This document shows, in pieces, positions 5,121 to 22,791 of a stretch of 64,000 nt of DNA; positions within the stretch are counted from its first letter, which is position 1; every line of letters begins with the position of its first letter. The position numbers and the translations under genes are program-made. Below the pieces are notes generated by a model. That model saw only the letters and a program-made list of their open reading frames with translations, was not told where the DNA came from and did not search any database. This DNA comes from Schmidtea nova (Eukaryota): the NCBI GenBank assembly GCA_044892505.1, contig CM097882.1, forward strand, positions 465,310,001 through 465,374,000. Reading direction: 5' to 3'.

Positions 5121-5531
5121 TCTGTCAAATTACATACCTATTAAAATATAACCTAGCGTCTCTCGGTTTTCTCGTTATAATTCCATTATTAGTAAATTTT
5201 TATTTAGTGAGGTAGTCATTAGAAAAACCGACTAGGAAATACTACTTGCATCTCTATCACGAGACATTTATATTCTCTGGTTATGGGTCGGTAGATTAAT
5301 ATCCATTACTGTTAGGCCTCAGATTGCCTAAAGTAACAAATTTTAAATCTGGGTCCTCGAAAAAATTTATGACTGAATAACACCCTGCCTAGCCGGCTCG
5401 TGCGTTATCAACGATGCCTCATTAGTATTCAAAAAACAACAAAAAAATCTACTACAAAAGCTCCATTCGACCATAACGGCTGAATTAGTTATTTTACTAA
5501 GATTATTTTAGTTACATTTATTTTATACGGA

Positions 5532-6703
5532 TGTTGAGGTTCCAAATATTTGCTATTTGCAATCTCAACTTGTTATTGGGGTGATTCGTATATAAATATC
5601 AAAAACAAAGTTTGTTTCAAAATTTTATTAATACAATAAAATTACTTTTTATTCCGTTTACAATTAATCACTCAAATTCTTTATTACACAATTTTTTTAA
5701 AAGAAAAAGTCGTGTCAAATCAATTCTTGTAATTGAACCTATTGGGTGACTGCTATGTAGTGCGTGCTATATTTTATTTGTGGATCCAATGTTTCTGATC
5801 CGGGTTTTAATAAGTTTTTCAAGATTTCCTTGAAAACTCGATATTGCGCAGATTTTAATTCTTTAGTTTAAAATTCGATTTTTAAAGCTATGAAATTTTT
5901 GGGCCTTTTTTCTGATTTTTCCATCAGCTTATATAGTAAATTTTTTATCTTTTTAACCATCATATAATTATATTTATTAAAATATTTATATTTCAATCGG
6001 TCTTTTTAACCATCATATAATTGTATTTATTAAAATATTTATATTTCAATCGGTATTTTTAACCGGATTTTGTTTATTTTATCTGGCTCAATATCTAGAA
6101 TAATATCTAGAATTTACATCTAGTCGTTTTACAATTTGCCGTTATCTAAAATTATTATTTTTTTATTAAATATATATCTAAAATTTATTATCTACACTTT
6201 GCCCTTTTTAATATATTATTATCTAAAATTATTATTTTTTTATTAAATAAAATTTTATTATCTACAATTTGCCCTTTTTAATATATTATTACTTCACATC
6301 TCATGCACTGTCATATTTTTTATTTATACAGATATATTACCTTATAGATTTTTACACAAATATATATATAAAATTCAAATGATAATATAAGGAATAATTA
6401 TGAAATTCAAGTACAGAATAATTATATACACTTCAAATACAGAATAATGACACTCATATACAAAATTTAAAAGTATATTAAATAATAAAGTTGTGATCAC
6501 ATAAACATAGTCATATAGTGATTATTTGAGGCTTTGTTGGCTTTGATTGAAGAAGGGTGATTTTTTGAGGCGATTGAAGATGGAGTCTGCATTATTTTCG
6601 GACTGGGTTTCTGCATATATATTAACCCTGTATCGATTAGGCCCTGTCCTGTAATATTTGTTCAGGGTAAATGCTTGGATGGGCTTCCCTCGATCATCCA
6701 ACA
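5532..6703 (-). repeat. 3' LTR (1172 bp, carries a 53-bp tandem duplication at 5950-6055)
   Basis: Direct repeat of 17580-18700 with about 5 substitutions, the 53-bp duplication and a 2-bp (TA) length difference. Confidence 0.97.
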
Positions 6704-8513
6704 TTCCTCCCAGGGCCGTCAAAGTAATGTCCTCATTACCTTTTTCGCTCAGGACCATTTCAATTTCTTTATCCTTTAATTTCATTACTGTTCTCTTGAA
6801 TCCTTTCTTGATTGTAAGATTTAGGGTATCATCTTCCTCAATTCGTCTTCCGAAATGGGTACATAATTGTTTTTCCGTTATCTCTTTTTGGTCGGCACCT
6901 ATAATGAAGCTAGGTTCTTCCTCCTCTTCTATTTCCATTTCAATGTCTGGTTCTGGTCCTAATTCGTCTTCTGCTTTTATTTTACTCTCCATTCCTTTTG
7001 TGAAGTCTTCTTCGTCGTCTTCCTCAACTGAAAAATACTCTTCGTCCGAATCTAAATCGCATATGTCTTCTCTTTCTTTGTATTTTTGTATTAGTTGCGG
7101 TTCGTTTTTAATCATTATTTGATTTTCTGGTGGTCCTTCTTCTTTTGTAATCATTAGGTCGTCATCACCATCTTCATGTATTGTTTCTTCCATATCTGAA
7201 TTTTCATCCATTATTATACTTTCTTCTTCGCTTTCCTTCAACTCTTCCATACATGATTTTCTGTTTTGCATCTGGTATAGGTCTCCTTTCATTTCGATAT
7301 CGTCTGTTATTGGTGTATCACTTTGTAACGCTGTTGAAGCTGCTGAATTCCATTTTATTATCGGTTCCCATTTGTCTTCTACTATTCCATATATTACCTT
7401 TAATATTGTTGTTGTCTTTCTGGCAGAAAATGGCTCACTTTCTACTAATGCTTCATTCAGTCTCTTATCTTTGAACCATCTCTTATGGTATTTAATCACT
7501 TGGTAAGCTAAGTTGGATAGCTTAATTTTGAGTGGATCCACGTTTTTCACGAATGAGCACATAAATTTATCTCCGGCCATTTCTCTCATTCCTGCAATGT
7601 TGTCTAGACCAAATGTTAGCATTTTTAATTTATCTATCATATCAAATCCTATGATTATTTTTCCCCACAACAGCTTTCTGATATCCCATAGCGCCTGGTA
7701 CTCATCTTCATTTCCGACGATACTTTCTTTATTAATCATTGTTTTTTCTGTGCAGAAGTTTTTTATCTTCGTTCTTGGGGTTATCTTTTTGTTGTATATC
7801 ATTTCACCGTTGTACTTTCTTATACATACTTCTACTGGTCGCTTGTTGTCATTTTTATCAATTGCAAATTTTGCATCCATGAACATAATTAGTTGGTGTC
7901 TCTCTTCTGTGGATAATTCATTGTGTGTGAAAGAGATTTTTTCATTTATCCAGCTTTGCTCGTACCAAGGTTTTGAAGGGATTGGCGGCATTGATTGGAA
8001 TGGATTTGATATCAGAGGGATATAGAGTATCTCGATTCCTATGACACACGGTAAGTTGTTCATTTGGATTATGAGGTGATTAAAATCGTCTGGCATACTT
8101 CTGTTGTTTGTAATTGTTTTGATGATGATTGAACAATTACTTGTTGTGATTATTGGTACTTTATGTTGGCAAATTGATACCTCGGTTTTTGTCATGTGGA
8201 ATAGGATTCTATGTGGTACCTTTTTTCCTTCGATTACCGCTTTGTCGACATTAAAATGTTTTTCAAATGTGCCGATTAGGTCTTTTAGTTTTGTTCGTCG
8301 AGCTTCATTAAATTTGATAATGTGTAGTTCTCTTTCTTCAATTTCCACTTTCATATCATTTGGGATGCATACTTGGTTTGGGAAGCTTCTGATTGTGATT
8401 GGATTTCCATCGGTACATATTTTGTTTTGTAGGGTTTTGTAAAAGTTTAGAGGGTGTTTGTTGATCATAGCCACATAGTTCATAGATCGAGAATAATTTG
8501 GCTCTGATTGCAT
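6522..8513 (-). CDS. ORF3: unknown N-terminal region, degenerate DEDDh (REX4/ISG20-like) exonuclease domain, acidic tail; ends inside the 3' LTR
   Basis: IMFMDAKF / PVEVCIRKYNGEMIYNKKITPRTKIKNFCTEKTMI / RKLLWGKIIIGFDM / KLSNLAYQVI / FSARKTTTILKVIY follow the spacing of REX4-type motifs. Start taken as MQSEP (8513); the frame is open to 9017. Confidence 0.75.
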   Translation of the reverse strand: MQSEPNYSRSMNYVAMINKHPLNFYKTLQNKICTDGNPITIRSFPNQVCIPNDMKVEIEERELHIIKFNEARRTKLKDLIGTFEKHFNVDKAVIEGKKVPHRILFHMTKTEVSICQHKVPIITTSNCSIIIKTITNNRSMPDDFNHLIIQMNNLPCVIGIEILYIPLISNPFQSMPPIPSKPWYEQSWINEKISFTHNELSTEERHQLIMFMDAKFAIDKNDNKRPVEVCIRKYNGEMIYNKKITPRTKIKNFCTEKTMINKESIVGNEDEYQALWDIRKLLWGKIIIGFDMIDKLKMLTFGLDNIAGMREMAGDKFMCSFVKNVDPLKIKLSNLAYQVIKYHKRWFKDKRLNEALVESEPFSARKTTTILKVIYGIVEDKWEPIIKWNSAASTALQSDTPITDDIEMKGDLYQMQNRKSCMEELKESEEESIIMDENSDMEETIHEDGDDDLMITKEEGPPENQIMIKNEPQLIQKYKEREDICDLDSDEEYFSVEEDDEEDFTKGMESKIKAEDELGPEPDIEMEIEEEEEPSFIIGADQKEITEKQLCTHFGRRIEEDDTLNLTIKKGFKRTVMKLKDKEIEMVLSEKGNEDITLTALGGMLDDRGKPIQAFTLNKYYRTGPNRYRVNIYAETQSENNADSIFNRLKKSPFFNQSQQSLK
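6704..6711 (-). promoter_or_regulatory. Polypurine tract GGGAGGAA
   Basis: Purine run immediately 5' of the 3' LTR on the minus strand; short. Confidence 0.7.
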
Positions 8514-8529
8514 TGTTAATTGAAGACAC

Positions 8530-8669
8530 AAGAATCGGGATATTGATTGATAAGTTAGTAAACAATAAAACACTAAGAATCGGGATATTGATTGATAAGT
8601 TAGCAAACAATAAAACACTAAGAATCGGGATATTGATTGATAAGTTAGTAAACGATAAAACACTAAGAA
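8530..8669. repeat. 45-bp tandem repeat, 3 copies
   Basis: Unit AAGAATCGGGATATTGATTGATAAGTTAGTAAACAATAAAACACT with 1-2 substitutions, just upstream of the ORF3 ATG. Confidence 0.9.
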
Positions 8670-8949
8670 TATAGATTGATAATGAGATCGAGATATGATT
8701 TTACGACTTGATTTGTGATTGGATTGAAAATTGGAACGATTTGATTGGGAGTTGGTTTGATTGTTTTGATTGTGCTGAGGATTTGATGTAAAACTGGCTT
8801 TATTGGGTTGTTTGTCAAATGGGTGACTTGTTTTTCTAAAAATAAAATGTAAATTTTTATGTTGAGAGCGTATTTCAGGTTTAACCTTATACGCTATTTT
8901 ATAGATATAGATATATGTGATTTTAATATATATTATTGACCAATTTAAC

Positions 8950-9975
8950 TTATACCAATGTGGACCTCGAATATTCACCTGGTATATATTTATCCAAATG
9001 GAAATGCCCTGGTACATTTCTGACCAGTTGGCTCCGATACCGCTGCCTTTTCCATTTGTACTTTTTATAAATTTGTACGCTAGTTATTAAAGCTAAAACT
9101 GCTAATGCTATTATTGATGTTGTGATGACATAAAAAGGCCAATGTGGATTTTTATCTTTTTTACGAAATGCTTGTAGTTCCTCTAAGTTATGTATCACTA
9201 TTGGTCTTCCTTGCCTTATTTTGATAGGTTCTTGTTTTTGTTTTTTGGCATTGTATTGTTTTTGGAGTTTGGCTATTCCAGTGCTTGTTGGTATTTCGTT
9301 TGTATGTAGTGTGGTATTTAGTCTATTATTTGATGTCGTTGTGCTTTTTATTTTATCGGGTGTTATGTTTTGGTTTTTTATTATATCCTTGGGTAATTGT
9401 TCTGTTTTTATCTTTTTGCATCTCCATGTTGTTGTATCTGTGTTTCTCTGTATGCAGATTCTATATATTGTATTAGGTGTTAGTTTTGTGAAATTAATAT
9501 AGTTTCCTCTTTCGATTTCGTTGGTTGTTCTGTCGTCCTTTCCTTTTATCATCTTTGGGTTTTTCCCATTCGTTGTTTGCATGTATAAATCAATTACTCC
9601 TCTATTTATGATAAATGCTCTAACTTCGTTTGTTGATATTTTTATTAATACTCTGTCAAATTCTATTGTTTCGGTTGAGCCAACAATTGTTATGATTGTT
9701 AAGAAGATAGCCGATATTATTAGTTTGTTATGAGATCTTAGATTATACTTGTGAGGTTTATCTATCGTGACCTCGGCTTCCGCCAACTTGCATCTGTTGA
9801 CATGTACTACTATTGGATCCTCGTTTTTATGCTTTTGTAAATGTAAATTCTCATTTATTACTTTTACTACTTCATATGGACCTTTATATGGTCTTGCTAA
9901 TTTTGTTGTCTTTCCCTTTCCTACTTGTGGTGACATAAGTCTAACCTTATCACCTACTTTAAAGTTGTGTGGTTT
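8950..9975 (-). CDS. Integrase C-terminus (GPY) fused in frame to signal peptide, FN3-like ectodomain, Thr-rich stalk, TM helix and basic tail
   Basis: FKVGDKV..RPYKGPYEV, YNLRS, hydrophobic LIISAIFLTIITIVGS, YINFTKLTPNTIYRICIQ, TM WPFYVITTSIIALAVLALITSVQIY, KKYKWKRQR, all in one frame. Confidence 0.75.
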   Translation of the reverse strand, partial: KPHNFKVGDKVRLMSPQVGKGKTTKLARPYKGPYEVVKVINENLHLQKHKNEDPIVVHVNRCKLAEAEVTIDKPHKYNLRSHNKLIISAIFLTIITIVGSTETIEFDRVLIKISTNEVRAFIINRGVIDLYMQTTNGKNPKMIKGKDDRTTNEIERGNYINFTKLTPNTIYRICIQRNTDTTTWRCKKIKTEQLPKDIIKNQNITPDKIKSTTTSNNRLNTTLHTNEIPTSTGIAKLQKQYNAKKQKQEPIKIRQGRPIVIHNLEELQAFRKKDKNPHWPFYVITTSIIALAVLALITSVQIYKKYKWKRQRYRSQLVRNVPGHFHLDKYIPGEYSRSTLV

Positions 9976-11040
9976 TTTGTACCTGTATTTTTTCTTGTTG
10001 CACATATTGTACACGCGTTACACCATCTCTTAACATCTTTCTTTAATTCTTCCCAGTAATATTTTTGTAATAATCTACTTGCTGTCTTTCTAGATGATAA
10101 GTGACCTCCTAATGCTCCATCGTGATATTGTAGTAGGAGTATTTGTCTTAATTTCTGAGGTACTACTATTAGTTGCTTACCATTGAAATCTTCTATTACT
10201 ACTAATTTCTTTGATATTTTATACTTTGAATTGTTTTCTTTTCTGATTTCATTTTTTATTTTACTGATCTCTGGGTCTTTCATCTGTTCCTCATATATAT
10301 TGATTGGTTTTTCTGCTACTAGTGCAAATATTTCAAGTGCTCCTAATTCTGGTATTCTTGATAGTGCATCTGCGTTTTTATTTATTCTACCTGGTTTATA
10401 TATAATTTTTAGGTGCATGTCTTGTATTTTCATTGCCCATTTAAGTAATCTACTTGATGTATCTTTATGTTTCCATAAACCTTCTAATGGTTTATGGTCA
10501 GTTCTTATTATCACTTCAGTCCCATATATGTATGGTTTGAATTGTTTTAGGGCGAATACTATTGCGTAACATTCTTTTTCTATTGTTGAATACCTCAGCT
10601 GTGCTCCTTTTAATGTTTTACTGGCATATGCTATTACGTAATCTTTCCCTTTTTCTTCTTCTTGGCCTAAGACTGCTCCTACGGCTTTCCCGCTGGCATC
10701 CGTCATTACTATAAACTGTTTTTCGAAATCTGGGTATCTTAACACGGGTGCTGTTATCAATCTTTCTTTTAGTTTATTGAATGCTTCTTGGTGTTCCTTT
10801 GTCCACTTCTTTTGTATCTTGTTAACTTTGCTGTTAATTTCTTGTACTATTAGCACATTTTTGCATTCTCCTTTTGTTCTAATTCCCTTTGTTAGTTCTA
10901 TTATCGGTGATGCTATCTTTGCATAATCTTGTATGAGTTTACGATAGTACCCTGTTAGACCTAAAAACCCCTGTACTTGTTGTACTGTTTTTGGTATTGG
11001 GAATTTCTTTACCACTTCTATTTTTTCTGGATTTGTTTTA
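9954..11040 (-). pseudogene. pol: Pol segment: RT connection, RNase H, integrase HHCC zinc finger (integrase core deleted)
   Basis: FLGLTGYYRK, VMTDASGKAVGAVL, YSTIEKECYAI, RTDHKPL, NKNADALSR, YHD..GGHLS..KYYW..CNACTIC, then an out-of-frame jump straight to the GPY region. Confidence 0.93.
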
Positions 11041-13741
11041 TCCCTTCTACTGTAACTATATGCCCTAGAAATAACGCCGAAGGTTCTGCCCATTTACACT
11101 TAGTTGGTTTAATTTTAATTTTTGCTTTTCTTAGTCTCTCGAGTACATTTGTTATATCTTTTAAGTGTTCCTCAAATGTTTTTGATGATATTAGTATATC
11201 ATCCATGTAAACTGCGCAATGTTGTACATTTACTAATATTGTATTCATTAGGCGCTGAAATGTAGCTGGTGCGTTAGTTAACCCGAAAGGTAATCGTGTG
11301 TACTCATATAAACCATCCTCGATAACAAATGCTGTTTTTTCCGCATCCCCTTCTTCCATTTGAATTTGCATATATCCCTTATTTGCGTCAATAACTGAAA
11401 AATACTTAGCATCCCTAAGTTTATCGTATTGCTCTTGTGCTTTTGGGAATGGGTATGAGTCTTTTACTGTTACATCATTTAATTTACGATAGTCAATGCA
11501 CATTCTTATTTCTCCGTCTTTCTTTTTAACGGGTACAATGGCTGATGCCCACTGTGAAAAACTCTGTTTTATTACACCTGCATCGTTTAGTTCTTTGATT
11601 TGTCGTTTTATTTCTTCTCTTAACTTGTATGGTACGCTGTATGGTCTTTGTTTTATTGGTCTCGCATTACCTGTATCTATTACATGTTTGATTATATCGG
11701 TATCTCCTAGATCAAATTCGTGTTTTGCAAAAACATCACTATATTTATCTATCAATGTTTGTAGTTGTGCTTGTTGTGTTATTGTTAAGTATTCATTATT
11801 AATTTTTACTTTGTCATATGATTTTATATTATTTATCTTACTAGGTTCGACTACTCCCTTGCCGTTATTATTCATCACGCTTATCTCACTGACTTCGTAT
11901 GTTTTTTCTAATTCACCTTTGAATAATTTTCCCAATTTCGTACCTTTGTGTATTTTATTATTACTTTTTTCATAATTTGCTATTCTCAATGGTATTATTC
12001 CCTTTCTCGGAATTACGCATTCATTGGTTAGCATTATATTCTGATTTTGTATAATTGCCGTTTCTGGCTCAAAAATAAAAGTGTCCTCACTTTTGATGTT
12101 AACTTTTAAGGGAATTATATGATCGCATTCATATTCCAATTCAAATGCTTCTAATGCAACAACTTCTGTGAACTTGGATTTATGTTTAATTGCTTTTCTC
12201 TTTATCATATTATCTGTTAAATCTATAATGCAATTTTCTAACTTGTTGAGTATATCGATTCCCAATATACATATGCTATTACATTCTTGCACCACTTTAA
12301 ATATGTGGTTTATTACCTGTTCTGGTGTTTCGACTATTAGTTCTATGTCTCCCTTTAGTGGAATACGATGTGCTGATAACGATACTACTTTATCCGTTGT
12401 GCTCATAATATTTCTTTTTTGATCATCTGTCAGTTGATCTTCTCTAATTAAGGATGTTGCTGCTCCTGTGTCTACTAATGCATTTATGATTATATTGTTT
12501 ATAATTATTCTAAGTCTTGGTCTTGCTTCGTTTGCTGCATCTAATCGTTCCATTGTTTCGACTTCTAAGCTATAACAACCATATATCTTTTTAGGTTCAC
12601 AATGACAATTCTTGTTTTCTCTAGGAATTTTGATTTCTATATTTTCTTGTAGCTCTTTTAGTTGTTCTCTTTGGTTTTCATATAGTCCTTGTTGTGGTAC
12701 ATTTCCTTCATGTGATATATGCGCTTTAATTATTTCCTCATCGTTTTCATCATCTACCAGTAATTGCCTTTCTTCACTCCTTTGGACTTTTATTAAACGT
12801 ATTTCCTTGTCGTGTTTCGCCGTAATAAGATATTTAGCTATAAATGGGCACAAACATGCTAATAATTTATATGAATTTCCAAATACTTGTTTTAGCTGTC
12901 TTAGTGATACTAGAGAAGAACATATCATTTTTAGTAATGCAACCGTATAATATATACCTAAGATCGTAGAAAACATGTTTCCAATGACTGCAAAGTATCC
13001 CCATATGCTATATAGTACTTTATATGCTACTTTTTTGAAGTATTCTTTTGATAATAACACATCAAAGTTGTAATTTCCTCCGTAACTTCCTTCGATAACT
13101 CTGTTAACCATTATTGAAAGTACTCTTTCTTTTTCGTTTGGAAATAGCACGTGTTTTCTTGCACTTTCTATAGCTTCTCTCGTATATATGCCATTACTGT
13201 CCATATCGTTGATTTCTTTAAACTCTAATCTTTTTTCTAGCTCTATGAGTTCTAATTTGAGTGGTTTCATTGCCTCCTTTCTATCTGACATAGATATCCA
13301 CATTTCGTCATTTATTTTGTATAATGGGTCTAATAGGTTAGTGCATTTTTCTATTTTTCTCGGTATATATGTTTTTTCTGTTAATATTCTAGTAATTAGT
13401 TGAAGGTATACCCTTTCTCCTTTATATATTACCGGTAATTCATTAGTGCACTGATTATTTGTTGCTAACGATACACTAACAGGTTTACATTGAAATGTCT
13501 GTATCACTTCTCCTACTATCCTTGCAAATGTTCCTTCTTCTGAGAAGATTATTGGTGCCATTAAATCTGGGTTTGTTACCGCCACTGCCATTTTTGTCCT
13601 CAATATTTCTCTGTTGAGTTTGCAATCGCTCATAATTGTTGATTGATATACTTTATCTAATTGTACTAGTTGGTTATGATAGAAAAAATCGATTTTATTG
13701 TTGAAGTATGATGCAAGTTTGACGTCGAATTTATTTACTTT
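11018..13741 (-). CDS. pol: Polyprotein segment: glycoprotein C-half with TM, aspartic protease, reverse transcriptase
   Basis: GEVIQTFQCKPV..CTNELPVIY..TRIL..NGIYT..FPNE..IWGYFAVIG (glycoprotein), ALVDTGAA and CILGIDIL (protease), RMCIDYRKLN, LPFGLTNAPATFQR, YMDDILI (RT). A 1-nt loss in an A-run near 11036-11040 shifts the frame. Confidence 0.93.
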   Translation of the reverse strand, partial: KVNKFDVKLASYFNNKIDFFYHNQLVQLDKVYQSTIMSDCKLNREILRTKMAVAVTNPDLMAPIIFSEEGTFARIVGEVIQTFQCKPVSVSLATNNQCTNELPVIYKGERVYLQLITRILTEKTYIPRKIEKCTNLLDPLYKINDEMWISMSDRKEAMKPLKLELIELEKRLEFKEINDMDSNGIYTREAIESARKHVLFPNEKERVLSIMVNRVIEGSYGGNYNFDVLLSKEYFKKVAYKVLYSIWGYFAVIGNMFSTILGIYYTVALLKMICSSLVSLRQLKQVFGNSYKLLACLCPFIAKYLITAKHDKEIRLIKVQRSEERQLLVDDENDEEIIKAHISHEGNVPQQGLYENQREQLKELQENIEIKIPRENKNCHCEPKKIYGCYSLEVETMERLDAANEARPRLRIIINNIIINALVDTGAATSLIREDQLTDDQKRNIMSTTDKVVSLSAHRIPLKGDIELIVETPEQVINHIFKVVQECNSICILGIDILNKLENCIIDLTDNMIKRKAIKHKSKFTEVVALEAFELEYECDHIIPLKVNIKSEDTFIFEPETAIIQNQNIMLTNECVIPRKGIIPLRIANYEKSNNKIHKGTKLGKLFKGELEKTYEVSEISVMNNNGKGVVEPSKINNIKSYDKVKINNEYLTITQQAQLQTLIDKYSDVFAKHEFDLGDTDIIKHVIDTGNARPIKQRPYSVPYKLREEIKRQIKELNDAGVIKQSFSQWASAIVPVKKKDGEIRMCIDYRKLNDVTVKDSYPFPKAQEQYDKLRDAKYFSVIDANKGYMQIQMEEGDAEKTAFVIEDGLYEYTRLPFGLTNAPATFQRLMNTILVNVQHCAVYMDDILISSKTFEEHLKDITNVLERLRKAKIKIKPTKCKWAEPSALFLGHIVTVEGIKQIQKK

Positions 13742-15367
13742 TTATTTTGCATCTTTGACTTCTTCTTTGCTTATGTATATCCCTTCATAATTAGTTTGTA
13801 TTATTTCCTTACCACATTTTACACTTTTCCTTTTACTAACAAACCTCATTGCTTCGTTTTCAGATTCTGACATATATATTGTTGGTGTATCTTTTTCTTG
13901 TACAATTGTTGTTTTCCTTTCTTGATCTCTCACCCTTTTTGAGTCTACTTCTGTGAACTGTTTTCCTTTGATTTCCCTAAATTTTAATGATTTTAATTTT
14001 GTTAATTGGCAATCATATTTATCTATTTTGTATATTAGCATTGATTCTCCTGTATCGCAATAAGATTCTTCTAATGTACAAAATTTGTATATCATCATTT
14101 TCTTTGAGCTGCTGTCGAATGATGCTTTGAACTTTCTCAGTTCTACCATGTAGTGTCTCCTTACTACAATATTACTCAGTTTTTCGCCCCATATTGTATA
14201 TTCTCCTCCTTCACAATATCCTCCTTTTGATGTCCATCCCACGACATTTACATCTTGTCTCATTTTTGCCCCTATCCTTGCTTCTAATTCTATTCCTTTA
14301 TGACCGCTATATTTTACTTTCTTTGTTTTAAATGCATCTTCACACTCTATTGGTGACAATATTACTGCTTCGGGTGTCCACGTAGGTTTTAACACTGTTC
14401 TTGCCCCAACATGACATATATATGCTTCCTCCTGATACTTTACTATGCACTCTTTGGCCTCTGTATGAATAAAGTCTGATTCTTGATAAACATGGAATAT
14501 TTGAGGCTCTGACATGATTAATTTAGTTGGATTTGCTTCAGGGCAATTTTCAACATCTAACAGTGAGTATTTTTGTCCCCACTTTGGATTTTGACAATCA
14601 TATGCTACCATTGCATTGCCTCCCTTGATTAAATCTAATAACAAAGTGATAATGACTATTACTATGGAGGTTATCGATTTACTCTCTGTCTTTGGTTTTA
14701 CTGTTGCTTTCTTTATTAATTGTTTTATTACCTCATCTGTATCACTCTCTTTATTCGTCGTATCTTTATCATATAATAGTTTCCATCCTCCTTTCTTTTT
14801 TATCCATGGTATTGCCTCTACTTTCAATCTTTTAAACATCATTGTTGCTACTTTTTCTAATTGCTCTTTTGGATTTTCCTTTATGAGCTTTTTATATCTT
14901 GCGGCCAAGTATGCCATGGCCGTTATTATTTTATCTTTATCTATCCCTGTATTAAACATGATTTTTAACACTGTTTTTTCATTTGCTTCCTCTGTAGCTA
15001 GTTCTTTAGTATCCTTTTTAATTAACATCATCCTTTCAGTTATATTTTCAATAAGTACTGTTGGCTTTGTTTCTGGAAATAGCTTAATATTCATTGCTTT
15101 TATTACTTCTTTTATTTTGTTTACGTCATTATTATCGTCTTGATACTCTGGTTGTTCATGTTTATGTTGATTTGCAATCTCTCTTAATCGTTCTGCTGTC
15201 TTCCTATTCTCCGATTTTTCTATTATTTCTGATTTTCGAGGTCTTCCTCTACCTCGTTTTGATGTTTCTGCATCTTTTGTTCTTGCTTCCTCAGCTATTC
15301 TTTCTATTGTTTCTTGTAAGTTACTATACTTTTCATCTATAGGTTTAAATATAATTTCTTCATCCAT
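13742..15367 (-). CDS. Polyprotein N-part: AT-hook, Bcl-2-like domain, signal anchor, glycoprotein N-half (premature TAA at 13742-13744; same frame continues)
   Basis: KRGRGRPRK; AERLREIANQ; MFNTGIDKDKIITAM; PWIKKKGGWKLL; SIVIVIITLLLDLI; AYDC..YSLLDVENC..YCEGG..YCDTGESMLIY. The 108 nt between the TAA and the next ORF are open and in frame. Confidence 0.85.
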   Translation of the reverse strand: MDEEIIFKPIDEKYSNLQETIERIAEEARTKDAETSKRGRGRPRKSEIIEKSENRKTAERLREIANQHKHEQPEYQDDNNDVNKIKEVIKAMNIKLFPETKPTVLIENITERMMLIKKDTKELATEEANEKTVLKIMFNTGIDKDKIITAMAYLAARYKKLIKENPKEQLEKVATMMFKRLKVEAIPWIKKKGGWKLLYDKDTTNKESDTDEVIKQLIKKATVKPKTESKSITSIVIVIITLLLDLIKGGNAMVAYDCQNPKWGQKYSLLDVENCPEANPTKLIMSEPQIFHVYQESDFIHTEAKECIVKYQEEAYICHVGARTVLKPTWTPEAVILSPIECEDAFKTKKVKYSGHKGIELEARIGAKMRQDVNVVGWTSKGGYCEGGEYTIWGEKLSNIVVRRHYMVELRKFKASFDSSSKKMMIYKFCTLEESYCDTGESMLIYKIDKYDCQLTKLKSLKFREIKGKQFTEVDSKRVRDQERKTTIVQEKDTPTIYMSESENEAMRFVSKRKSVKCGKEIIQTNYEGIYISKEEVKDAK

Positions 15368-17340
15368 TACTGATTTCTTTGTTTCGCTAGGTGATTTATA
15401 CTCAACTCAACCGACGGTACTGGCGTCATTATTTCATTGATCATTTGTTTTTCTACTGTGGCTACCACAATATTATCACTTACTGGGTTTATCCCATAAT
15501 CGATTAAGTACTCGTCACTTAATAATTCTATTCCGTTAAAATATAATTTTATTACATCCTTCTCTCCTATGGTTCCTGGCCATTTGGCTCTTACCATTCG
15601 TTTTAATTTGCTCACTTTAGTGCAAGGATGCATCTTTTGTTTAATACTAAAAAAATAATTATCATTTGATTCAATCGTTACATTTAGTGTTTCATGAAAT
15701 TTTTCATTTTTTCTTATATATTCTCCATAACATTTCAGTATCTCTTTTATTTCTATTTCTAATTCAAATACTCTCGTTACATTTTGTCTCTTTACCATCA
15801 TTGGTATTAAATTTCTAAGTCTCTCTAAATCAATCCCATTAACCTGTATTTTATTGATTACTCTTAATGTTTCATTGTCATCAAACGGTTGCTTATGCAA
15901 TACCTCTTTAAATTCCTCTATTAATTCTTTTTGTCTATTTTCTTCTGTAAGAAATATTTCATCTGCTTTTCTAATTTCCTTTAACTCATCATTATCAATA
16001 TCTACTTCATTTGTAAAGGTGCTAAATTCATTTATAGACATTTCAAGTTTTCTCTCAATAAGTCTTCCATATTGAGTTTTAAATTCTTTTAGTTCCTCTC
16101 TTAATATATTTATTTCTTTATTTGCTGATTCGAGCTCAGCACTATTTACTTGTTTTATCTCAGGCTCATTTTTAAATCTTACTCTTATTGGTGAATCTGC
16201 TCGTGGTTTATTACATACCTTTGCTAGGTGGCCATACTTTTGGCAATTATAACATTTTATTTGTCCATTAAAATTCACTTTATCTCTACCATCATTATTA
16301 TAAGTATTTCGCCTCACTGGGCTATCTTGTCTATTTCTCGAATTATCTCTATATCTATTATCTCTTCTATTATATTCGAAGCGACTATCTCTATTATTTT
16401 TATTATATCCACTGTAACTGTTTCTGTTATAACCAGAACGACTATCTCTAAAATTATCTCTGTTGTCTCTATCATTATCTCTATCAAAACGATTGTCTCT
16501 AAAACTGTCTCTATTATTGTTTCTTTGATAACTATCTTTAAAATTATTTCTATTTCTATTATCGAAATTTTTATTTCCTGGACTATTAAACCTTCCCCTG
16601 TTTTCAGGTGATTGGCTTCTATTAGGACTAAATTTTCTTCTATTATTAACAAATTTCAAGTATAATTGTTTCATTTCTTCCCAGGGAATACTATCATCCT
16701 TATTTCTCAACTCAGGTTTTACCTCGGGTTGTTTTTCAACTTCTACAGCATCTACCTCTGGTTTAAATCTATCTCTTTGTATTGCTTCGATACGTTTTGC
16801 CTTTTGAACTAACTCATTTAAGTCTTCATACTCAATTGTAATTAATGCTTTGTATAAATATTTTTGGATTCCGTTCCAAAACTGATCCTCGATTAACCTA
16901 CTAGTGTGATCTCCTGCACCAAATGCCTTTTTTGCTAATTCTGTTATCGTGTATATATATTCACCTACTGATTCTCTTGCTCCTTGGTATCTACTTCTAA
17001 ATTTTTGAACATTTATTTTTTGTAAGTCTCTATCTATTACTATTTCTTTTCTAAGGTTTGTAACTAACTCTTGATAATTAATGCCTTTACATGCTAAATT
17101 ATTGTATGCTTGTAATGCGTATCCTTTTAAATATAATGGAATTCGTTGTTTTAATTCATTTGTTTTCCATCCGCAAGCCTCTGCATATTGTGCGATTTCG
17201 GCAAAAAAGTCGTCGAACTTTTCAGGGTCTCCTTTATATGATTCTATTGGTAGTGTTTTTATAAAATTATGATTACTGTTGATGTTGTCTGTATTGCTGT
17301 TACTTCCACTATTATTGCTGCCTGTACTATTATTACTCAT
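15367..17340 (-). CDS. gag: Gag (capsid, RS/RD-rich linker, CCHC knuckle, coiled coil, C-terminal ubiquitin-like domain)
   Basis: YKGDP..FF..YAEACGW..LYLKGYALQAY, Q..RESVGEY..L..KAF, CYNCQKYGHLAKVC, then LYFNGIELLSDEYLIDYGI. Confidence 0.92.
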   Translation of the reverse strand: MSNNSTGSNNSGSNSNTDNINSNHNFIKTLPIESYKGDPEKFDDFFAEIAQYAEACGWKTNELKQRIPLYLKGYALQAYNNLACKGINYQELVTNLRKEIVIDRDLQKINVQKFRSRYQGARESVGEYIYTITELAKKAFGAGDHTSRLIEDQFWNGIQKYLYKALITIEYEDLNELVQKAKRIEAIQRDRFKPEVDAVEVEKQPEVKPELRNKDDSIPWEEMKQLYLKFVNNRRKFSPNRSQSPENRGRFNSPGNKNFDNRNRNNFKDSYQRNNNRDSFRDNRFDRDNDRDNRDNFRDSRSGYNRNSYSGYNKNNRDSRFEYNRRDNRYRDNSRNRQDSPVRRNTYNNDGRDKVNFNGQIKCYNCQKYGHLAKVCNKPRADSPIRVRFKNEPEIKQVNSAELESANKEINILREELKEFKTQYGRLIERKLEMSINEFSTFTNEVDIDNDELKEIRKADEIFLTEENRQKELIEEFKEVLHKQPFDDNETLRVINKIQVNGIDLERLRNLIPMMVKRQNVTRVFELEIEIKEILKCYGEYIRKNEKFHETLNVTIESNDNYFFSIKQKMHPCTKVSKLKRMVRAKWPGTIGEKDVIKLYFNGIELLSDEYLIDYGINPVSDNIVVATVEKQMINEIMTPVPSVELSINHLAKQRNQ

Positions 17341-17559
17341 TTTGTATATTACCTTATTTCTTAACTTGTGTAATATTTCAGGTTGCTTATCTATAATAAC
17401 TTTCTTTATCTTTTTACCTATTTTGTTATTGTTAACCTTATATGTTTGTATATTTTTGAATTTCTGTTTTGGTCAATAATATTTATATAAATATATTTTC
17501 CCAATATATATTACAATATCCCTCTGATCGCAATTCCTATCCCCCAATTGATTTTATTG

Positions 17560-17577: not shown

Positions 17578-17579
17578 AA

Positions 17580-18700
17580 TGTTGAGGTTCCAAATATTTG
17601 CTATTTGCAATCTCAACTTGTTATTGGGGTGATTCGTATATAAATATCAAAAACAAAGTTTGTTTCAAAATTTTATTAATACAATAAAATTACTTTTTAT
17701 TCCGTTTACAATTAATCACTCAAATTCTTTATTACACAATTTTTTTAAAAGAAAAAGTCGTGTCAAATCAATTCTTGTAATTGAACCTATTGGGTGACTG
17801 CTATGTAGTGCGTGCTATATTTTATTTGTGGATCCAATGTTTCTGATCCGAGTTTTAATAAGTTTTTCAAGATTTCCTTGAAAACTCGATATTGCGCAGA
17901 TTTTAATTCTTTAGTTTAAAATTCGATTTTTAAAGCTATGAAATTTTTGGGCCTTTTTTCTGATTTTTCCATCAGCTTATATAGTAAATTTTTTATCTTT
18001 TTAACCATCATATAATTATATTTATTAAAATATTTATATTTCAATCGGTCTTTTTAACCGGATTTTGTTTATTTTATCTGGCTCAATATCTAGAATAATA
18101 TCTAGAATTTACATCTAGTCGTTTTACAATTTGCCGTTATCTAAAATTATTATTTTTTTATTAAATATATATCTAAAATTTATTATCTACACTTTGCCCT
18201 TTTTAATATATTATTATCTAAAATTATTATTTTTTTATTAAATAAAATTTTATTATCTACAATTTGCCCTTTTTAATATATTATTACTTCACATTTCATG
18301 CACTGTCATATTTTTTATTTATACAGATATATTACCTTATAGATTTTTACACAAATATATATATATAAAATTCAAATGATAATATACGGAATAATTATGA
18401 AATTCAAGTACAGAATAATTATATACACTTCAAATACAGAATAATGACACTCATATACACAATTTAAAAGTATATTAAATAATAAAGTTGTGATCACATA
18501 AACATAGTCATATAGTGATTATTTGAGGCTTTGTTGGCTTTGATTGAAGAAGGGTGATTATTTGAGGCGATTGAAGATGGAGTCTGCATTATTTTCGGAC
18601 TGGGTTTCTGCATATATATTAACCCTGTATCGATTAGGCCCTGTCCTGTAATATTTGTTCAGGGTAAATGCTTGGATGGGCTTCCCTCGATCATCCAACA
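17580..18700 (-). repeat. 5' LTR (1121 bp)
   Basis: Near-identical to 5532-6703; a TATATAA and several AATAAA are present on the minus strand. Confidence 0.97.
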
Positions 18701-19000: not shown

Positions 19001-19876
19001 TTAAATTTCAATATCCGGTGGACAAAAATCAGCAATAAAGCGAAGAATCTGGTCAAACGGTTCATCTTCGCCCCTGTTTCGTCGCCACATGAATTCCTCC
19101 ATATATGATTCCAGAAAAATACGCTTGGTGCCGCTCTGCCTTTTGTTTCGCCACTTCACAGTACGCCACATCCTTTCAGCATTTTGTGTGTGAGCACCGG
19201 TGTCCGGATCGACGAAATTGTAGCGGTGATTGACGCGCTGATGAGTAAAGCCAGTATCCTGCAGTCCGTTGTAAGCACGCCATGAATCGGTTATGATCGT
19301 AGAATTTTGGTGAACATGTTCGGCGATGATCGGCAAGAGAGTGGCGACACTTCGATCAATAACTCGGACAAGGAACACCTGTTTGGTTTCACGACAAATC
19401 CCTCCGAGCATCCATTGCTGTGGCAAAACACGACCCGCATGATTCTTCCGCTTGCTGAACAGGCTTTCATCGATTTCCACGACCATTCCTTCGCCTCCGA
19501 TTATCTGATGCTCTTGTTGAAGGCACCAAGAGCACACTTCGCGCATGAATTTGCAGTATTTGACCGTCGTCTCTCCGTCCATTTCCAGTTGACGTTCGCA
19601 GAATTTGATAGATGCCCATTCCTCAGCCCAGGCGTAGATGAATCGGATGATTGTTTCATAAGGTAGTCGGAGGCCTTCGGTCCAGTTTCCAACTCTCATT
19701 CTCACAGTTCGGTGACACGAGGCTCGATTGCACTTCCAATGGACTTGTTTTCCAAAATATAGCTTCATTTGATGTCCTTTGGCACGCACACGCATGGCCG
19801 GCAGAATCCCACGCTCTTGCAGAAATAGGACACTCTCTTCCTCTCCGTTGGGCAATTCGTGATATTTGAGAACCAT
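19001..19876 (-). CDS. Merlin (IS1595/ISXO2-like) DDE transposase, intact ORF
   Basis: VVEIDESLFSKRK, WMLGGICRET, STIITDSWRAY, HQRVNHRYNFVDPDTGAHTQNAERMW, SYMEEFMWR. A 15-bp inverted repeat lies at 18958-18972 / 20068-20082; true termini not established. Confidence 0.93.
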   Translation of the reverse strand: MVLKYHELPNGEEESVLFLQERGILPAMRVRAKGHQMKLYFGKQVHWKCNRASCHRTVRMRVGNWTEGLRLPYETIIRFIYAWAEEWASIKFCERQLEMDGETTVKYCKFMREVCSWCLQQEHQIIGGEGMVVEIDESLFSKRKNHAGRVLPQQWMLGGICRETKQVFLVRVIDRSVATLLPIIAEHVHQNSTIITDSWRAYNGLQDTGFTHQRVNHRYNFVDPDTGAHTQNAERMWRTVKWRNKRQSGTKRIFLESYMEEFMWRRNRGEDEPFDQILRFIADFCPPDIEI

Positions 19877-21123
19877 GAAAGGCTAAAGTAATGAAAAAAT
19901 AATGAGTATTTCTTGTTAAAATGTTAAAATAAAAAAATGAGAAAAATCATTTAAATATATTTTATTGATCAAAATCATTTAAATATTTTATGAAAAAATA
20001 ATGAGTATTTCTTGTTAAAATGTTAAAATAAAAAAATGAGAAAAATAAGATTTATGCAGAAAATAAAAAAAATGCGATCAGTATTTTATTTTTAGAAAGT
20101 TAGTATTTGGTAGTATGTGATGAGAACTGTAGAGCCCAGAAGATTATCCTATTAAAATCTGTCTTGGGACAGCTGGGGTGGGTGCACTGTACGTACCGCT
20201 GTTTGAGTGTGTGCTTGTGTATGTTAGTAAATGTTTTAATAAAATAAACTAACAAAATACAAAATCTTTCAACGAAACTATTTTAAGAACAAAAATTCAA
20301 AGTTACTCACGTAAAAAACGAATAGCCTGTAATTTCAATTTAGGGGAACTTGTTTCAGATTTACTTCTTCCTTTCAGTTAATTTCTTTCTATAGGGTAAT
20401 TTTCTTTTATCTTCTGTTCTTGATTGTTTATGAATTTTCCTAGGCAATTTTTCTGGTTTTATTTAGTTTTGGTTCCTTCGATTTTATTTTCATCTCGGCA
20501 ATTTATTTTGGTTTTCTTAATTTTCGTTAAACAATCTCTTTTGCACTTAGTAATTTTTTTATTTTTAAAATCCAATTTTTTTCTCTCGTAATTTATTTGT
20601 AATTTATAATCCATTTTTTTCTTTTATAGTTATTTCTAATTTTCAATGACAATTGATTTTTGTTTTGAATTTGAATTTTTTAAAATTTCCTTTTCTTTAA
20701 ATTAATTGTTTATTCATGGCTATTTGCCAAATGAACAAAATGACAGAATCAATAAAAAGGGGGGTCATCCTGTGTCCGCAAGGACGCCCACGACAATAAT
20801 CACACAATACAACATTAACAACAATAATCATAAAAATGCTGTATTAACACGGTGTATTTGATGATAGTGTGCCCTGGAACCTCGCTGGGCAACTCGAAAA
20901 AATAACTGGGATAGTCCTCAAGGTATTGGACATCTACATCGATTGGCCACTCTTGTTTTCCGTGCTAAACGATGTCATCGGGGCTGTCCCGAAATAGGCT
21001 AAAACTAGGCATTTCCCCTGTCTCGGCGAATCGTTCCTGATGTTCAGCTAGGATCTATCTTGCCAGATCTGTAGGAATCTGCTTGAAGTTGCCGTAGTCT
21101 AATATCGGCTTGTAATAATTTGT

Positions 21124-22791
21124 ATGCAAAGATACTTTGAATTTATCCACAGTATCTTTGCATACAAATTATTACAAGCCGATATTAGACTGACAAACAG
21201 CGCCAGGAATATTGAATCTGCTAATGCTACGGCAACTTACATTGTTGAATTTGTCAACATGAAGTGGAAAACAAATGCCTTTTATTACAAATACTTTCTA
21301 GATGTCAGACCATTGAAAGTTTCTGCTAACGGTAAACGTTTGGAAGTTCTTATCAATTCCTATGGATACATCACTACGGAGTCCAATGAATCAATGTTGG
21401 GATATTTCCGCATCAATGATAAATATGAAATCAGCAGATTAGTTGAATCGCATAATAAGCGCTATCAACCGATTTACATCGCTGACGTGCCAGTGATTAT
21501 TCTGCCTGAAATCACAGAAATAGTTGCCTTAGAAACGAAGGAATTTATGGAACTATCTAAAACTTTAAAACTAAATATTTTTAATAAACAATGCTATGCC
21601 AAAGTTGTTATTGGGCCTTACTTTTATGTCAATCTTAGTGATAACATTGAATTTGTTACTGAGAGAGAGAAATTTATAAAGATCGAAATATGGGTACAGA
21701 ATATATTTCTCCGTTTAAACTTGATATTTAATCAACTTCCGTGGGAAATAAGGATCGAGTTCTTGGTGGATCACTTGCCTATTTTGACTCCAAAAACGTG
21801 CTTGAGTGACTTTAAAGGTCCCCGTTTAAGTGCCCGGGAATTGCTCGAACCTTTCAAAAGTGATTCTTCTATTAGATGTTTTAAGTTGGAAGGCCAAATG
21901 CCGTTCACCGGTATGGCTTTAATATTGAATACTACTTTCTATAGGTCTTTGGCAATGATCGTCCAACATTATTACATCAACATTATTTTCGGATTGTTTG
22001 TATTCATTGTCTTTACAATGTGCATTTTTGAAGGTTCTTATATGATGAACTTATTAGTCTCAAGAAAATTACGATTTTATTGTCAATTGATGTCCTATCA
22101 AGATCCGAAAGTGAATGTATTTAGAGTATGTACTGTGCTATCCAATCCATGTGTGTATCATTTTTATATGGTTATTCAATCTTTGAGACCTCCTTTTATT
22201 TTTATTCGTGAAATTTTGGTAAACTGCCTGTTTGATATTTTCACAGACATTTCCAAAACTTGGTGTTATGTTTCAAATCTTATTCTTAAATTTTACAGAT
22301 TTTTCAACGTCTCTTTCAATCAATTAATAAAGAAAAGTGATACAATTAAGATTTATATAGAAACTGGTTATCAAATAAATATTACCTTTTCTGACAATTA
22401 TATCTACACACTCCGAGTGATTGGACAAGTACTTTCTAATAAGCAAGCCGGCAGTGGAACACCTCCTTATGAGATCCTCCTTGGGGGATTACCCGATGGT
22501 TTCGATCGATCTTTGGTTCGACCTGGAATCCTTCTTTCCCTGCTATGTGGCAAGACTAAGTACATGTTAACCAATGGCCGTAAGCCGAATACCGACTACG
22601 GACATTCGGAAACTAAAGTATATTTATATTTATTTGTAAATTTTTGTAAAATAATAAGCGAGGGAACAAATATAAAATTGATGAATCGGCAACCACGCCA
22701 AAAATCTGAATACCTTGGTGTGGTTTCCGGTTCATCAAAAGGGGCATGGCTACTATTAGGAAATTGTCGTACAAGTTGGAATTTGATATAG
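21124..22791 (+). CDS. Orphan 555-aa ORF, intronless, one hydrophobic segment
   Basis: Stop-free length is very unlikely by chance in AT-rich DNA; no motif recognised; candidate TM YYINIIFGLFVFIVFTMCIF. Confidence 0.5.
   Translation: MQRYFEFIHSIFAYKLLQADIRLTNSARNIESANATATYIVEFVNMKWKTNAFYYKYFLDVRPLKVSANGKRLEVLINSYGYITTESNESMLGYFRINDKYEISRLVESHNKRYQPIYIADVPVIILPEITEIVALETKEFMELSKTLKLNIFNKQCYAKVVIGPYFYVNLSDNIEFVTEREKFIKIEIWVQNIFLRLNLIFNQLPWEIRIEFLVDHLPILTPKTCLSDFKGPRLSARELLEPFKSDSSIRCFKLEGQMPFTGMALILNTTFYRSLAMIVQHYYINIIFGLFVFIVFTMCIFEGSYMMNLLVSRKLRFYCQLMSYQDPKVNVFRVCTVLSNPCVYHFYMVIQSLRPPFIFIREILVNCLFDIFTDISKTWCYVSNLILKFYRFFNVSFNQLIKKSDTIKIYIETGYQINITFSDNYIYTLRVIGQVLSNKQAGSGTPPYEILLGGLPDGFDRSLVRPGILLSLLCGKTKYMLTNGRKPNTDYGHSETKVYLYLFVNFCKIISEGTNIKLMNRQPRQKSEYLGVVSGSSKGAWLLLGNCRTSWNLI

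Follow-up and report, generated by a model that had tools for sequence, protein, structure and literature searches.

A conserved FN3-like transmembrane module follows the integrase in the polyprotein of Burro-like Ty3/gypsy elements of Schmidtea nova

We analysed a 64,000-nt stretch of the Schmidtea nova genome (assembly GCA_044892505.1, contig CM097882.1, positions 465,310,001 to 465,374,000; hereafter the window), and found that it holds a broken copy of a young Burro-like Ty3/gypsy element whose reading frame continues past the integrase into a second membrane protein module, made up of a signal sequence, an FN3-like ectodomain, a stalk, a transmembrane (TM) helix and a cytoplasmic tail. 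This module is under purifying selection and recurs in five families (A-E) of this genome. That it is a real protein with the topology described here seems to us very probable. As for its role, we lean towards an accessory type I glycoprotein, released from the polyprotein by cleavage, that would act in cell contact or attachment alongside the gB-type fusogen of the same element.

The element is a multi-copy Ty3/gypsy retrotransposon of 13.2 kb with 1.1-kb LTRs (Table 1). Its TG..CA ends and 4-bp target duplication (CGGA) are those of Ty3/gypsy elements, as are the PR-RT-RH-IN order and the GPY/F module; a Troyka identity was ruled out by the same ends and duplication. The 3' LTR exceeds the 5' LTR by about 50 nt, owing to a 53-nt tandem duplication at 5948-6053. 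Four breaks interrupt the window copy: the missing stretch at 9975, the stop at 13744-13742, and frame interruptions near 11035 and 15395. On the minus strand, the hydrophobic segment (14674-14618) that comes after the Bcl-2-like domain (14980-14783) could be both the C-terminal anchor of that domain and the gB signal. The ISG20/REXO4-like ORF downstream of the module, which runs into the 3' LTR in the window copy, is present in every family (also at L073:5586-7034 and L077:2003-3409); judged by eye, its catalytic-looking motifs (D-A-E, GHD, H-x-A-L-E-D) remain intact in families B and C, and those of A, D and E have decayed. Nearby in the window lie an ISXO2-like transposase (19001-19882, E 3.5e-18), a weak hAT piece (31335-32315) and an RT piece (25004-25756), all on the minus strand, and a plus-strand ORF of 562 aa without Pfam match (21103-22791) that starts at a 47-nt inverted repeat.

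Table 1. Features of the element copy in the window (positions counted from the first letter of the window)
Feature	Position	Strand	Remarks
5' LTR	17579..18700	-	followed by primer-binding-site-like sequence at about 17576-17558
Gag frame with CCHC knuckle	15367..17472	-	joined in frame to all downstream parts in unbroken copies; broken near 15395 here
Ubiquitin/SUMO-like domain	15487..15681	-	Rad60-SLD E 0.005, below Pfam cut-off
Bcl-2-like domain	14783..14980	-	E 1e-6, just under Pfam cut-off
gB-type fusogen (Pfam Monjiviricetes_fusion, PF24664)	12725..14674	-	signal 14674-14618, TM about 12988-12908
PR 12529-12236, RT 11530-11054, RNase H 10805-10419, IN zinc finger 10163-9987	9987..12529	-	Pfam
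Missing integrase core, about 675 nt	9974..9975	-	in this copy
Integrase C-terminal domain	9733..9972	-	GPY 9882-9874, YNLRS 9747-9733; Pfam Integrase_p58_C and SH3_Tf2-1, both weak
Internal signal sequence, 16-aa h-region	9676..9723	-	adjoins integrase end; Kyte-Doolittle peak 1.88
FN3-like beta-sandwich ectodomain, 94 aa	9394..9675	-	L-x-P-x-T-x-Y strand motif; dN/dS 0.28
Stalk, Thr/Lys/Gln-rich	9211..9393	-	length varies by whole codons
Membrane-proximal segment	9145..9210	-	kept between subfamilies; dN/dS 0.21 (L002 vs L051)
Transmembrane helix, 25 aa	9070..9144	-	hydropathy peak 2.23
Cytoplasmic tail, 39 aa	8950..9069	-	polybasic stretch, C-terminal STLV, stop 8952-8950
Three 45-nt tandem repeats	8530..8670		between module stop and exonuclease-like ORF3 (repeat family D11)
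Downstream ORF, ISG20/REXO4-like exonuclease fold	6522..8513	-	profile E 2.2e-9
3' LTR	5531..6702	-	about 99% identical to 5' LTR

A minus-strand frame of 355 aa (10017-8950) leads from the integrase C-terminus into the module without a stop after YNLRS; the Y and R of YxLR are invariant across 11 polyproteins. The first-pass annotation of this DNA had described a hydrophobic signal, a beta-rich region, a Thr-rich stalk, a TM and a basic tail running on from the integrase end, and all of them are present in this frame, the beta-rich domain containing FTKLTPNTIYRICIQ..WRCKKIKT. Small residues occupy positions -3/-1 of the window signal (by eye), which is putatively cleaved, and the stalk of a near-identical copy (L071) is 16% Thr and 20% Thr+Ser. 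The proposal that a second membrane protein occupies the usual env position is supported. The accompanying idea that Pol lies between two membrane anchors holds for unbroken copies but not for the window copy, which lacks about 675 nt of integrase core at 9975 and has a disrupted frame, so that the module is fused there only to a C-terminal piece of the integrase.

The genome copies of the element are near-identical (97-100% identity among the 40 of 856 candidates that were scored). By hand count, 30 of 150 scored protein matches (357 candidates) sit in open frames of 3,054-3,082 aa; one of these 30 long frames is flagged with an internal stop, and 3 of the 150 matches list one. Multiple near-identical copies with unbroken frames, a mark of gB-type errantiviruses, are therefore present. 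In unbroken copies a single frame of about 3,070 aa encodes Gag, the ubiquitin-like and Bcl-2-like domains, gB, PR-RT-RH-IN, signal, FN3-like domain, stalk, TM and tail, and in both L071 and L072 one ORF spans the complete set of domains, Gag through module. The PF24664 match of L071 covers aa 949-1610 (E 9.5e-87) and its PR starts at aa 1661, which places a gB-type env between gag and pol. In the same polyprotein hydrophobicity rises above 1.75 at exactly four peaks (aa 945, 1516, 2821 and 3018), a pattern consistent with a luminal gB and FN3-like domain and a cytosolic Gag, Pol and tail. Hydropathy and charge bias are compatible with a putative type I membrane protein that has a cleaved signal, a luminal ectodomain, one TM and a cytosolic tail, but the charge bias matches this topology in only 13 of the signals and 12 of the TMs of 17 module rows. 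Glycosylation sequons are 1.8-fold enriched in the ectodomains, yet also 1.4-fold in Pol. No in-frame Met precedes the h-region of the module in the seven loci inspected, and outside relatives carry up to about 900 aa of extra domains between IN and signal in the same frame; translation as part of the polyprotein is therefore favoured over a separate start, though a spliced mRNA is conceivable.

The frame past YNLRS is not due to chance, since it continues in 40 of 40 loci read (20/20 and 20/20), 32 of which reach the full C-terminus. A stop directly after YNLRS in other copies, which the first-pass annotation had named as evidence against its fusion model, was seen in 0 of these 40. The dN/dS comparison that it had suggested was made by a simple counting method on 27 aligned unbroken copies, and values below 1 in ectodomain and tail indicate purifying selection. 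For L002 against L051, two copies of different subfamilies (dS about 0.3), dN/dS reached 0.01 for the IN core, 0.24 for the tail, 0.28 for the beta domain (Fisher p 0.001), 0.43 for the TM and 1.03 for the stalk; the beta domain gave 0.26-0.40 across five informative pairs and 0.65 in one further pair. Length changes also preserve the frame: 35 of the 40 loci could be oriented and 34 measured, and the YNLRS-to-TM distance, which falls into seven in-frame length classes (594-657 nt), is a multiple of three in 33 of these 34. While the four breaks of the window copy would suit a non-functional read-through or a relic, this explanation is largely refuted by the clade-wide presence of the module, the dN/dS below 1 and the frame-preserving length changes, and we find it hardly credible.

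Families B and C, found by a gB-model search (68 of 3,412 candidates scored), have ORFs of 3,401 and 3,393 aa and an ectodomain of about 320 aa. The module is present in 13 of 13 fetched loci of these families, 10 of them unbroken from GPY onward, and two upstream stretches that were scanned contain Gag and a weak Bcl-2 match. Judged by eye, the Bcl-2-like domain seems to be preceded by two ubiquitin-like repeats in families B and C (L086 and L087) and by one in family A. Searches with the Bcl-2 and family D domains yielded families D and E (ORFs of 2,992 and 2,993 aa, one domain, short stalk); several loci fetched in the course of these searches were truncated, interrupted or unrelated. Four copies (L096, L101, L107 and L122) are interrupted by inserts that carry a packaging-ATPase-like motif and an integrase-like ORF, which we take to resemble Maverick/Polinton elements.

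Outside this genome, 81 long polyproteins match the IN region. Among the 12 closest (44-52% identity, source ENA, 9 of 12 with PF24664), a signal-like segment and a TM follow IN in 11, whereas at least two hydrophobic segments after IN occur in only 3 of the remaining 69. In a quick maximum-likelihood tree of RH-IN, rooted at the midpoint, run without bootstrap and limited to the 74 of 87 rows whose cover was sufficient, a single clade with an SH-aLRT of 100 unites the 17 module rows with P0013. Repeats with an L-x-P-x-T-x-Y-like motif number one to three in ten outside members; in P0015 a short Cys-rich head takes their place, and P0013, although in the clade, ends without the module. At least one extra aspartic-protease-like domain (D-[TS]-G) follows the integrase in P0005-P0010, P0013, P0014 and P0016, with more elsewhere in the polyprotein; ankyrin repeats occur in P0008, P0010 and P0011, and C2H2 fingers in P0013 and P0016. 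In several members such protease-like and ankyrin domains sit in frame in the interval from IN to the signal. L071 and L072 gave no MATH, BIR or ankyrin Pfam match. In the P0005 and P0006 clusters, full polyproteins of 3,700-4,000 aa appear 20-21 times on metagenome contigs of 14-18 kb, about one element's length, and these contigs could be collapsed host repeats or free particles. A very abundant family of this genome (loci L125-L139, from 1,295 BIR candidates) has its ankyrin/protease, RING-TRAF-MATH and BIR-RING domains on separate ORFs, along with an ORF of 527 aa ending in EETFV and a signal-ectodomain-TM ORF of 275-283 aa without Pfam match; no pol was found in the stretches fetched. This MATH/BIR/ankyrin family and the architecture of the element are both in keeping with a planarian-type host.

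The best reading of the ectodomain is an FN3-like fold, which is well supported and not decisive. Language-model neighbours of the domain fall in FN3 clusters at 0.86-0.89, a lead only. A profile from an alignment of 17 domains (A1) gave 52 PDB sequence matches at E <= 10, the best being neogenin (E 6.5e-4), and 51 of the 52 are, going by their names, presumably FN3-containing proteins; this result is partly circular, because the ten outside rows of A1 were chosen by their FN3 motif. In the E-F motif of A1, L65 is invariant and Y71 is kept in at least 90% of the 17 rows, ten of them motif-chosen. When modelled with A1, the window domain is all beta with 8 short strands (pLDDT 83, pTM 0.75). 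The best Foldseek rows for this model are FN3 domains (E 1.3e-3 to 1e-2; none <= 0.001), and VIA-align places sevenless, sDscam FNIII, IFNAR2 D2 and fibronectin at Z 7.7-7.9 (no Z of 8), the best Z of 7.9 (rmsd 3.0, 75 aligned) being tied with a carbohydrate-binding module and other Ig-like folds. A single-sequence model, free of motif selection, was mediocre (pLDDT 64), with FnIII domains still its top fold matches. The viral fold library returned no match at E <= 0.001, and the Pfam fn3 model scored 13.2 bits on the window domain against a gathering score of 25 (E 0.11). Canonical FN3 domains are seven-stranded beta-sandwiches with a Trp in strand B; this Trp is absent in the window domain, and families B and C have it in their second repeat. 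The FN3 fold proposed in the first-pass annotation thus leads in the Foldseek, VIA and profile comparisons, but its best E and Z stay at the values given above and the strand-B Trp is lacking. Homology of the window domain to the outside repeats rests on position, motif and tree: the direct comparison was not significant alone (best 9.2 bits vs 9.7 for shuffles; hhalign probability 21%), and profile searches in either direction, between families A/D/E and the outside repeats, gave nothing that exceeded the shuffled controls.

The module had also been taken for a captured host gene, and for this origin no cellular relative or donor emerged from sequence, representative or profile searches. Cellular or other relatives numbered 0 among 1,620 candidates in a weak search and 0 among 1.84 billion representatives, and the A1 profile, with 8,000 scored, picked out just two members of the clade. 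In this genome the Pfam fn3 model gave 141 matches, none in a frame of about 3,000 aa; the fn3 model is therefore blind to the element's domains, and no donor could be picked. FN3 receptors and adhesion molecules (neogenin/DCC, Dscam, cytokine receptors) consist of a signal, one or more FN3 repeats, a stalk, a TM and often a PDZ-binding tail; they share the layout and fold neighbourhood of the module, but at 10-18% identity and with no specific donor among them. With IFNAR2, the IL-20/22 receptors, sevenless and neogenin among its fold neighbours, the head might imitate a cytokine or adhesion receptor and, together with the PDZ-type tail, dampen host signalling or block superinfection as a mimic or decoy with no entry role. 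Such a function would suit the host-modulating cargo of the clade (Bcl-2-like, ubiquitin-like and ankyrin domains and the ISG20-like ORF) and an arms race behind the fast ectodomain change; according to PMC13465017, Lee et al. 2026 report that a Burro1 IAP protects stem cells of the host. We nevertheless consider it unlikely: the relative searches found no specific host receptor relative, the 1-3 repeats and the head swap in P0015 fit a spacer or adhesin better than a mimic of a fixed ligand, and the module was seen only in the gB-carrying clade.

A class I PDZ-binding motif is a C-terminal [ST]-x-[VIL], and the STLV end of the window module fits this pattern, making it a candidate PDZ ligand. 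Tails end in STLV or STQV in family A, in ETFV in B and C, and in TSWV, TTLV, ATTV, STFV, GTVV, ESSV or ETSL in outside members, while D and E end in STLC (T-L-C), P0015 ends in EVFV, and P0009, P0014 and P0016 are without a PDZ-type motif. An [ST]-x-[VIL] end is found in 11 of 17 module rows, and in 7 of the 12 closest outside members vs 2 of the 69 others (Fisher p 7e-6, over relatives that are not independent). Given the exceptions of P0015, P0013, D/E, P0009, P0014 and P0016, neither the head nor the PDZ-type motif is universal. The clade-wide range, the 1-3 repeats, the PDZ-type end in most families and the single Gag-to-tail polyprotein all go beyond what had been noticed before.

Head and tail evolve at different rates. 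The ectodomains (118-386 aa, mostly with 1-3 FN3-like repeats) diverge far faster than gB, which within family A is 97% identical when the domain is 82% identical. Comparing A with D or E, identity is 83-85% in the integrase, 30-39% in the domain and 72-76% in the tail, and among A, D and E the tail is 72-86% identical vs 30-47% for the head; the head therefore changes fast and the cytosolic end is held. Together with the exchangeable head (P0015) and the membrane segments that bracket Pol, this conservation of the tail could mean that membrane segments and tail are the working parts, which would hold Pol at the membrane where assembly takes place and bring in scaffolds or Gag, and that the ectodomain is mainly a folded spacer. 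The head, however, is itself under purifying selection and has grown to 2-3 repeats in several lineages, which would be needless for a mere tether, and we rate this explanation as improbable.

For the accessory glycoprotein that we prefer, we infer cleavage, surface location, a partner and a role in spread. The module would be translated as the last part of a polyprotein that crosses the ER membrane four times, with Gag, Ubl and Bcl-2-like domains in the cytosol, then a signal, gB in the lumen, a TM, Pol in the cytosol, a second signal, the FN3-like domain and stalk in the lumen, a TM and the cytosolic tail. Signal peptidase would release the module, and the element's protease would presumably release the Pol enzymes. 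At the cell or particle surface, the FN3-like head on its variable stalk may contact a host surface molecule, and the polybasic PDZ-type tail may link the module to membrane scaffolds, likely at cell-cell contacts, whereby gB-driven entry or cell-to-cell passage would be placed at the right membrane. Tentatively, we suggest as a possible further step that a whole clade of gypsy elements combines two entry glycoproteins of unrelated origin in one four-pass polyprotein: the class III fusogen ahead of Pol and, past the integrase, an FN3-based protein for attachment or adhesion, whose PDZ-binding tail would direct assembly to cell junctions and so promote cell-to-cell spread. Other class III fusogens (rhabdovirus G, GP64) work without a partner, which counts against our best reading.

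As an accessory protein of an LTR element that spans the membrane once and carries a basic patch on its cytoplasmic side, the module also recalls the short sORF2 proteins of MDG1-group elements and FAST proteins; sORF2 has been linked to cell-to-cell transfer (PMC11952523). It could accordingly be imagined as a second cell-cell fusogen of this kind that moves capsids between cells without gB, given its single TM followed by a basic patch, as in sORF2 (PMC11952523), and a weak Pfam Orthoreo_P10 match over the TM of L055 (E 0.19). However, sORF2 is a short separate ORF of env-less elements and has no folded ectodomain (PMC11952523), whereas the module is part of a polyprotein and coexists with gB. 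Proteins of the FAST/sORF2 type are short, with a small ectodomain, and often N-myristoylated; the module, with ectodomains of 118-386 aa, folded FN3-like repeats and an internal signal vs FAST proteins of about 100-200 aa, does not belong to that type. It has no free N-terminus for myristoylation, and the element already contains gB, so we regard a fusogen of this sort as very improbable.

Planarian Burro/GYPSM1 elements encode a single polyprotein with Gag (CCHC), Ubi/SUMO-like, BCL-2-like, env and pol, in which the first env lies in frame between gag and pol and matches mononegaviral fusion proteins, and Burro relatives have ankyrin repeats and accessory ORFs (PMC6431247). The window element type likewise has Gag, Ubl, BCL-2-like, env and pol in one ORF, its Ubl and Bcl-2 matches being below the Pfam cut-offs. 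Unlike Burro (>30 kb, 4,873-5,140 aa; PMC6431247), it measures 13 kb with an ORF of about 3,070 aa, and it gave no MATH, BIR or dUTPase match. Because it falls short of the size of Burro, we call it Burro-like rather than Burro, a placement made by domain order. The main text of PMC6431247, as distinct from its figure, mentions no FN3, second TM protein or PDZ motif, and the word 'fibronectin' is absent from it.

The gB-type errantiviruses with a GAG-ENV-POL arrangement, which occur in flatworms, nematodes and bryozoans (PMC13524379), share with the window element type a Ty3/gypsy pol, a gB-type env before pol and many near-identical young copies. Those described in PMC13524379 have three ORFs and one envelope protein, whereas the window element type adds a second surface protein; neither 'fibronectin' nor 'FN3' occurs in the main text or the seven supplements of that paper, nor does 'PDZ' in the supplements. 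Their entry mechanism is called unknown there, because herpes gB needs partner glycoproteins (PMC13524379). Atlas virus and the Cer-type belpaoviruses also have a single polyprotein, glycoproteins joined in frame to the integrase end and two surface proteins, with GN of Atlas virus for receptor binding and GC for fusion (PMC9094657). Atlas virus, in contrast, is a BEL/Pao element with a class II fusogen, and both its glycoproteins derive from one captured phlebovirus-like 3' block (PMC9094657), whereas here a class III fusogen stands before Pol and an unrelated second protein follows IN. Our literature search found no report of an FN3-TM-PDZ protein at an integrase end; key Burro papers, Repbase and figures lay outside this search, and a prior mention is possible. 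The gag-env-pol polyprotein is already published, and the second surface protein is apparently unreported.

With at least five module families, and at least 100 candidate copies for each or for pairs of them, these elements bear on the evolution of the host genome. They represent a retroelement with a flavivirus-like four-pass polyprotein, in which the enzymes are bracketed by membrane segments. Should the module be a receptor mimic instead, a surface component would join the host-modulating cargo of Burro-like elements. If the two-glycoprotein reading is true, gB errantiviruses would turn out to have the receptor-binding partner that they were believed to be missing. The conserved second surface protein offers a testable candidate for attachment, tropism or junction-directed spread of gB elements.
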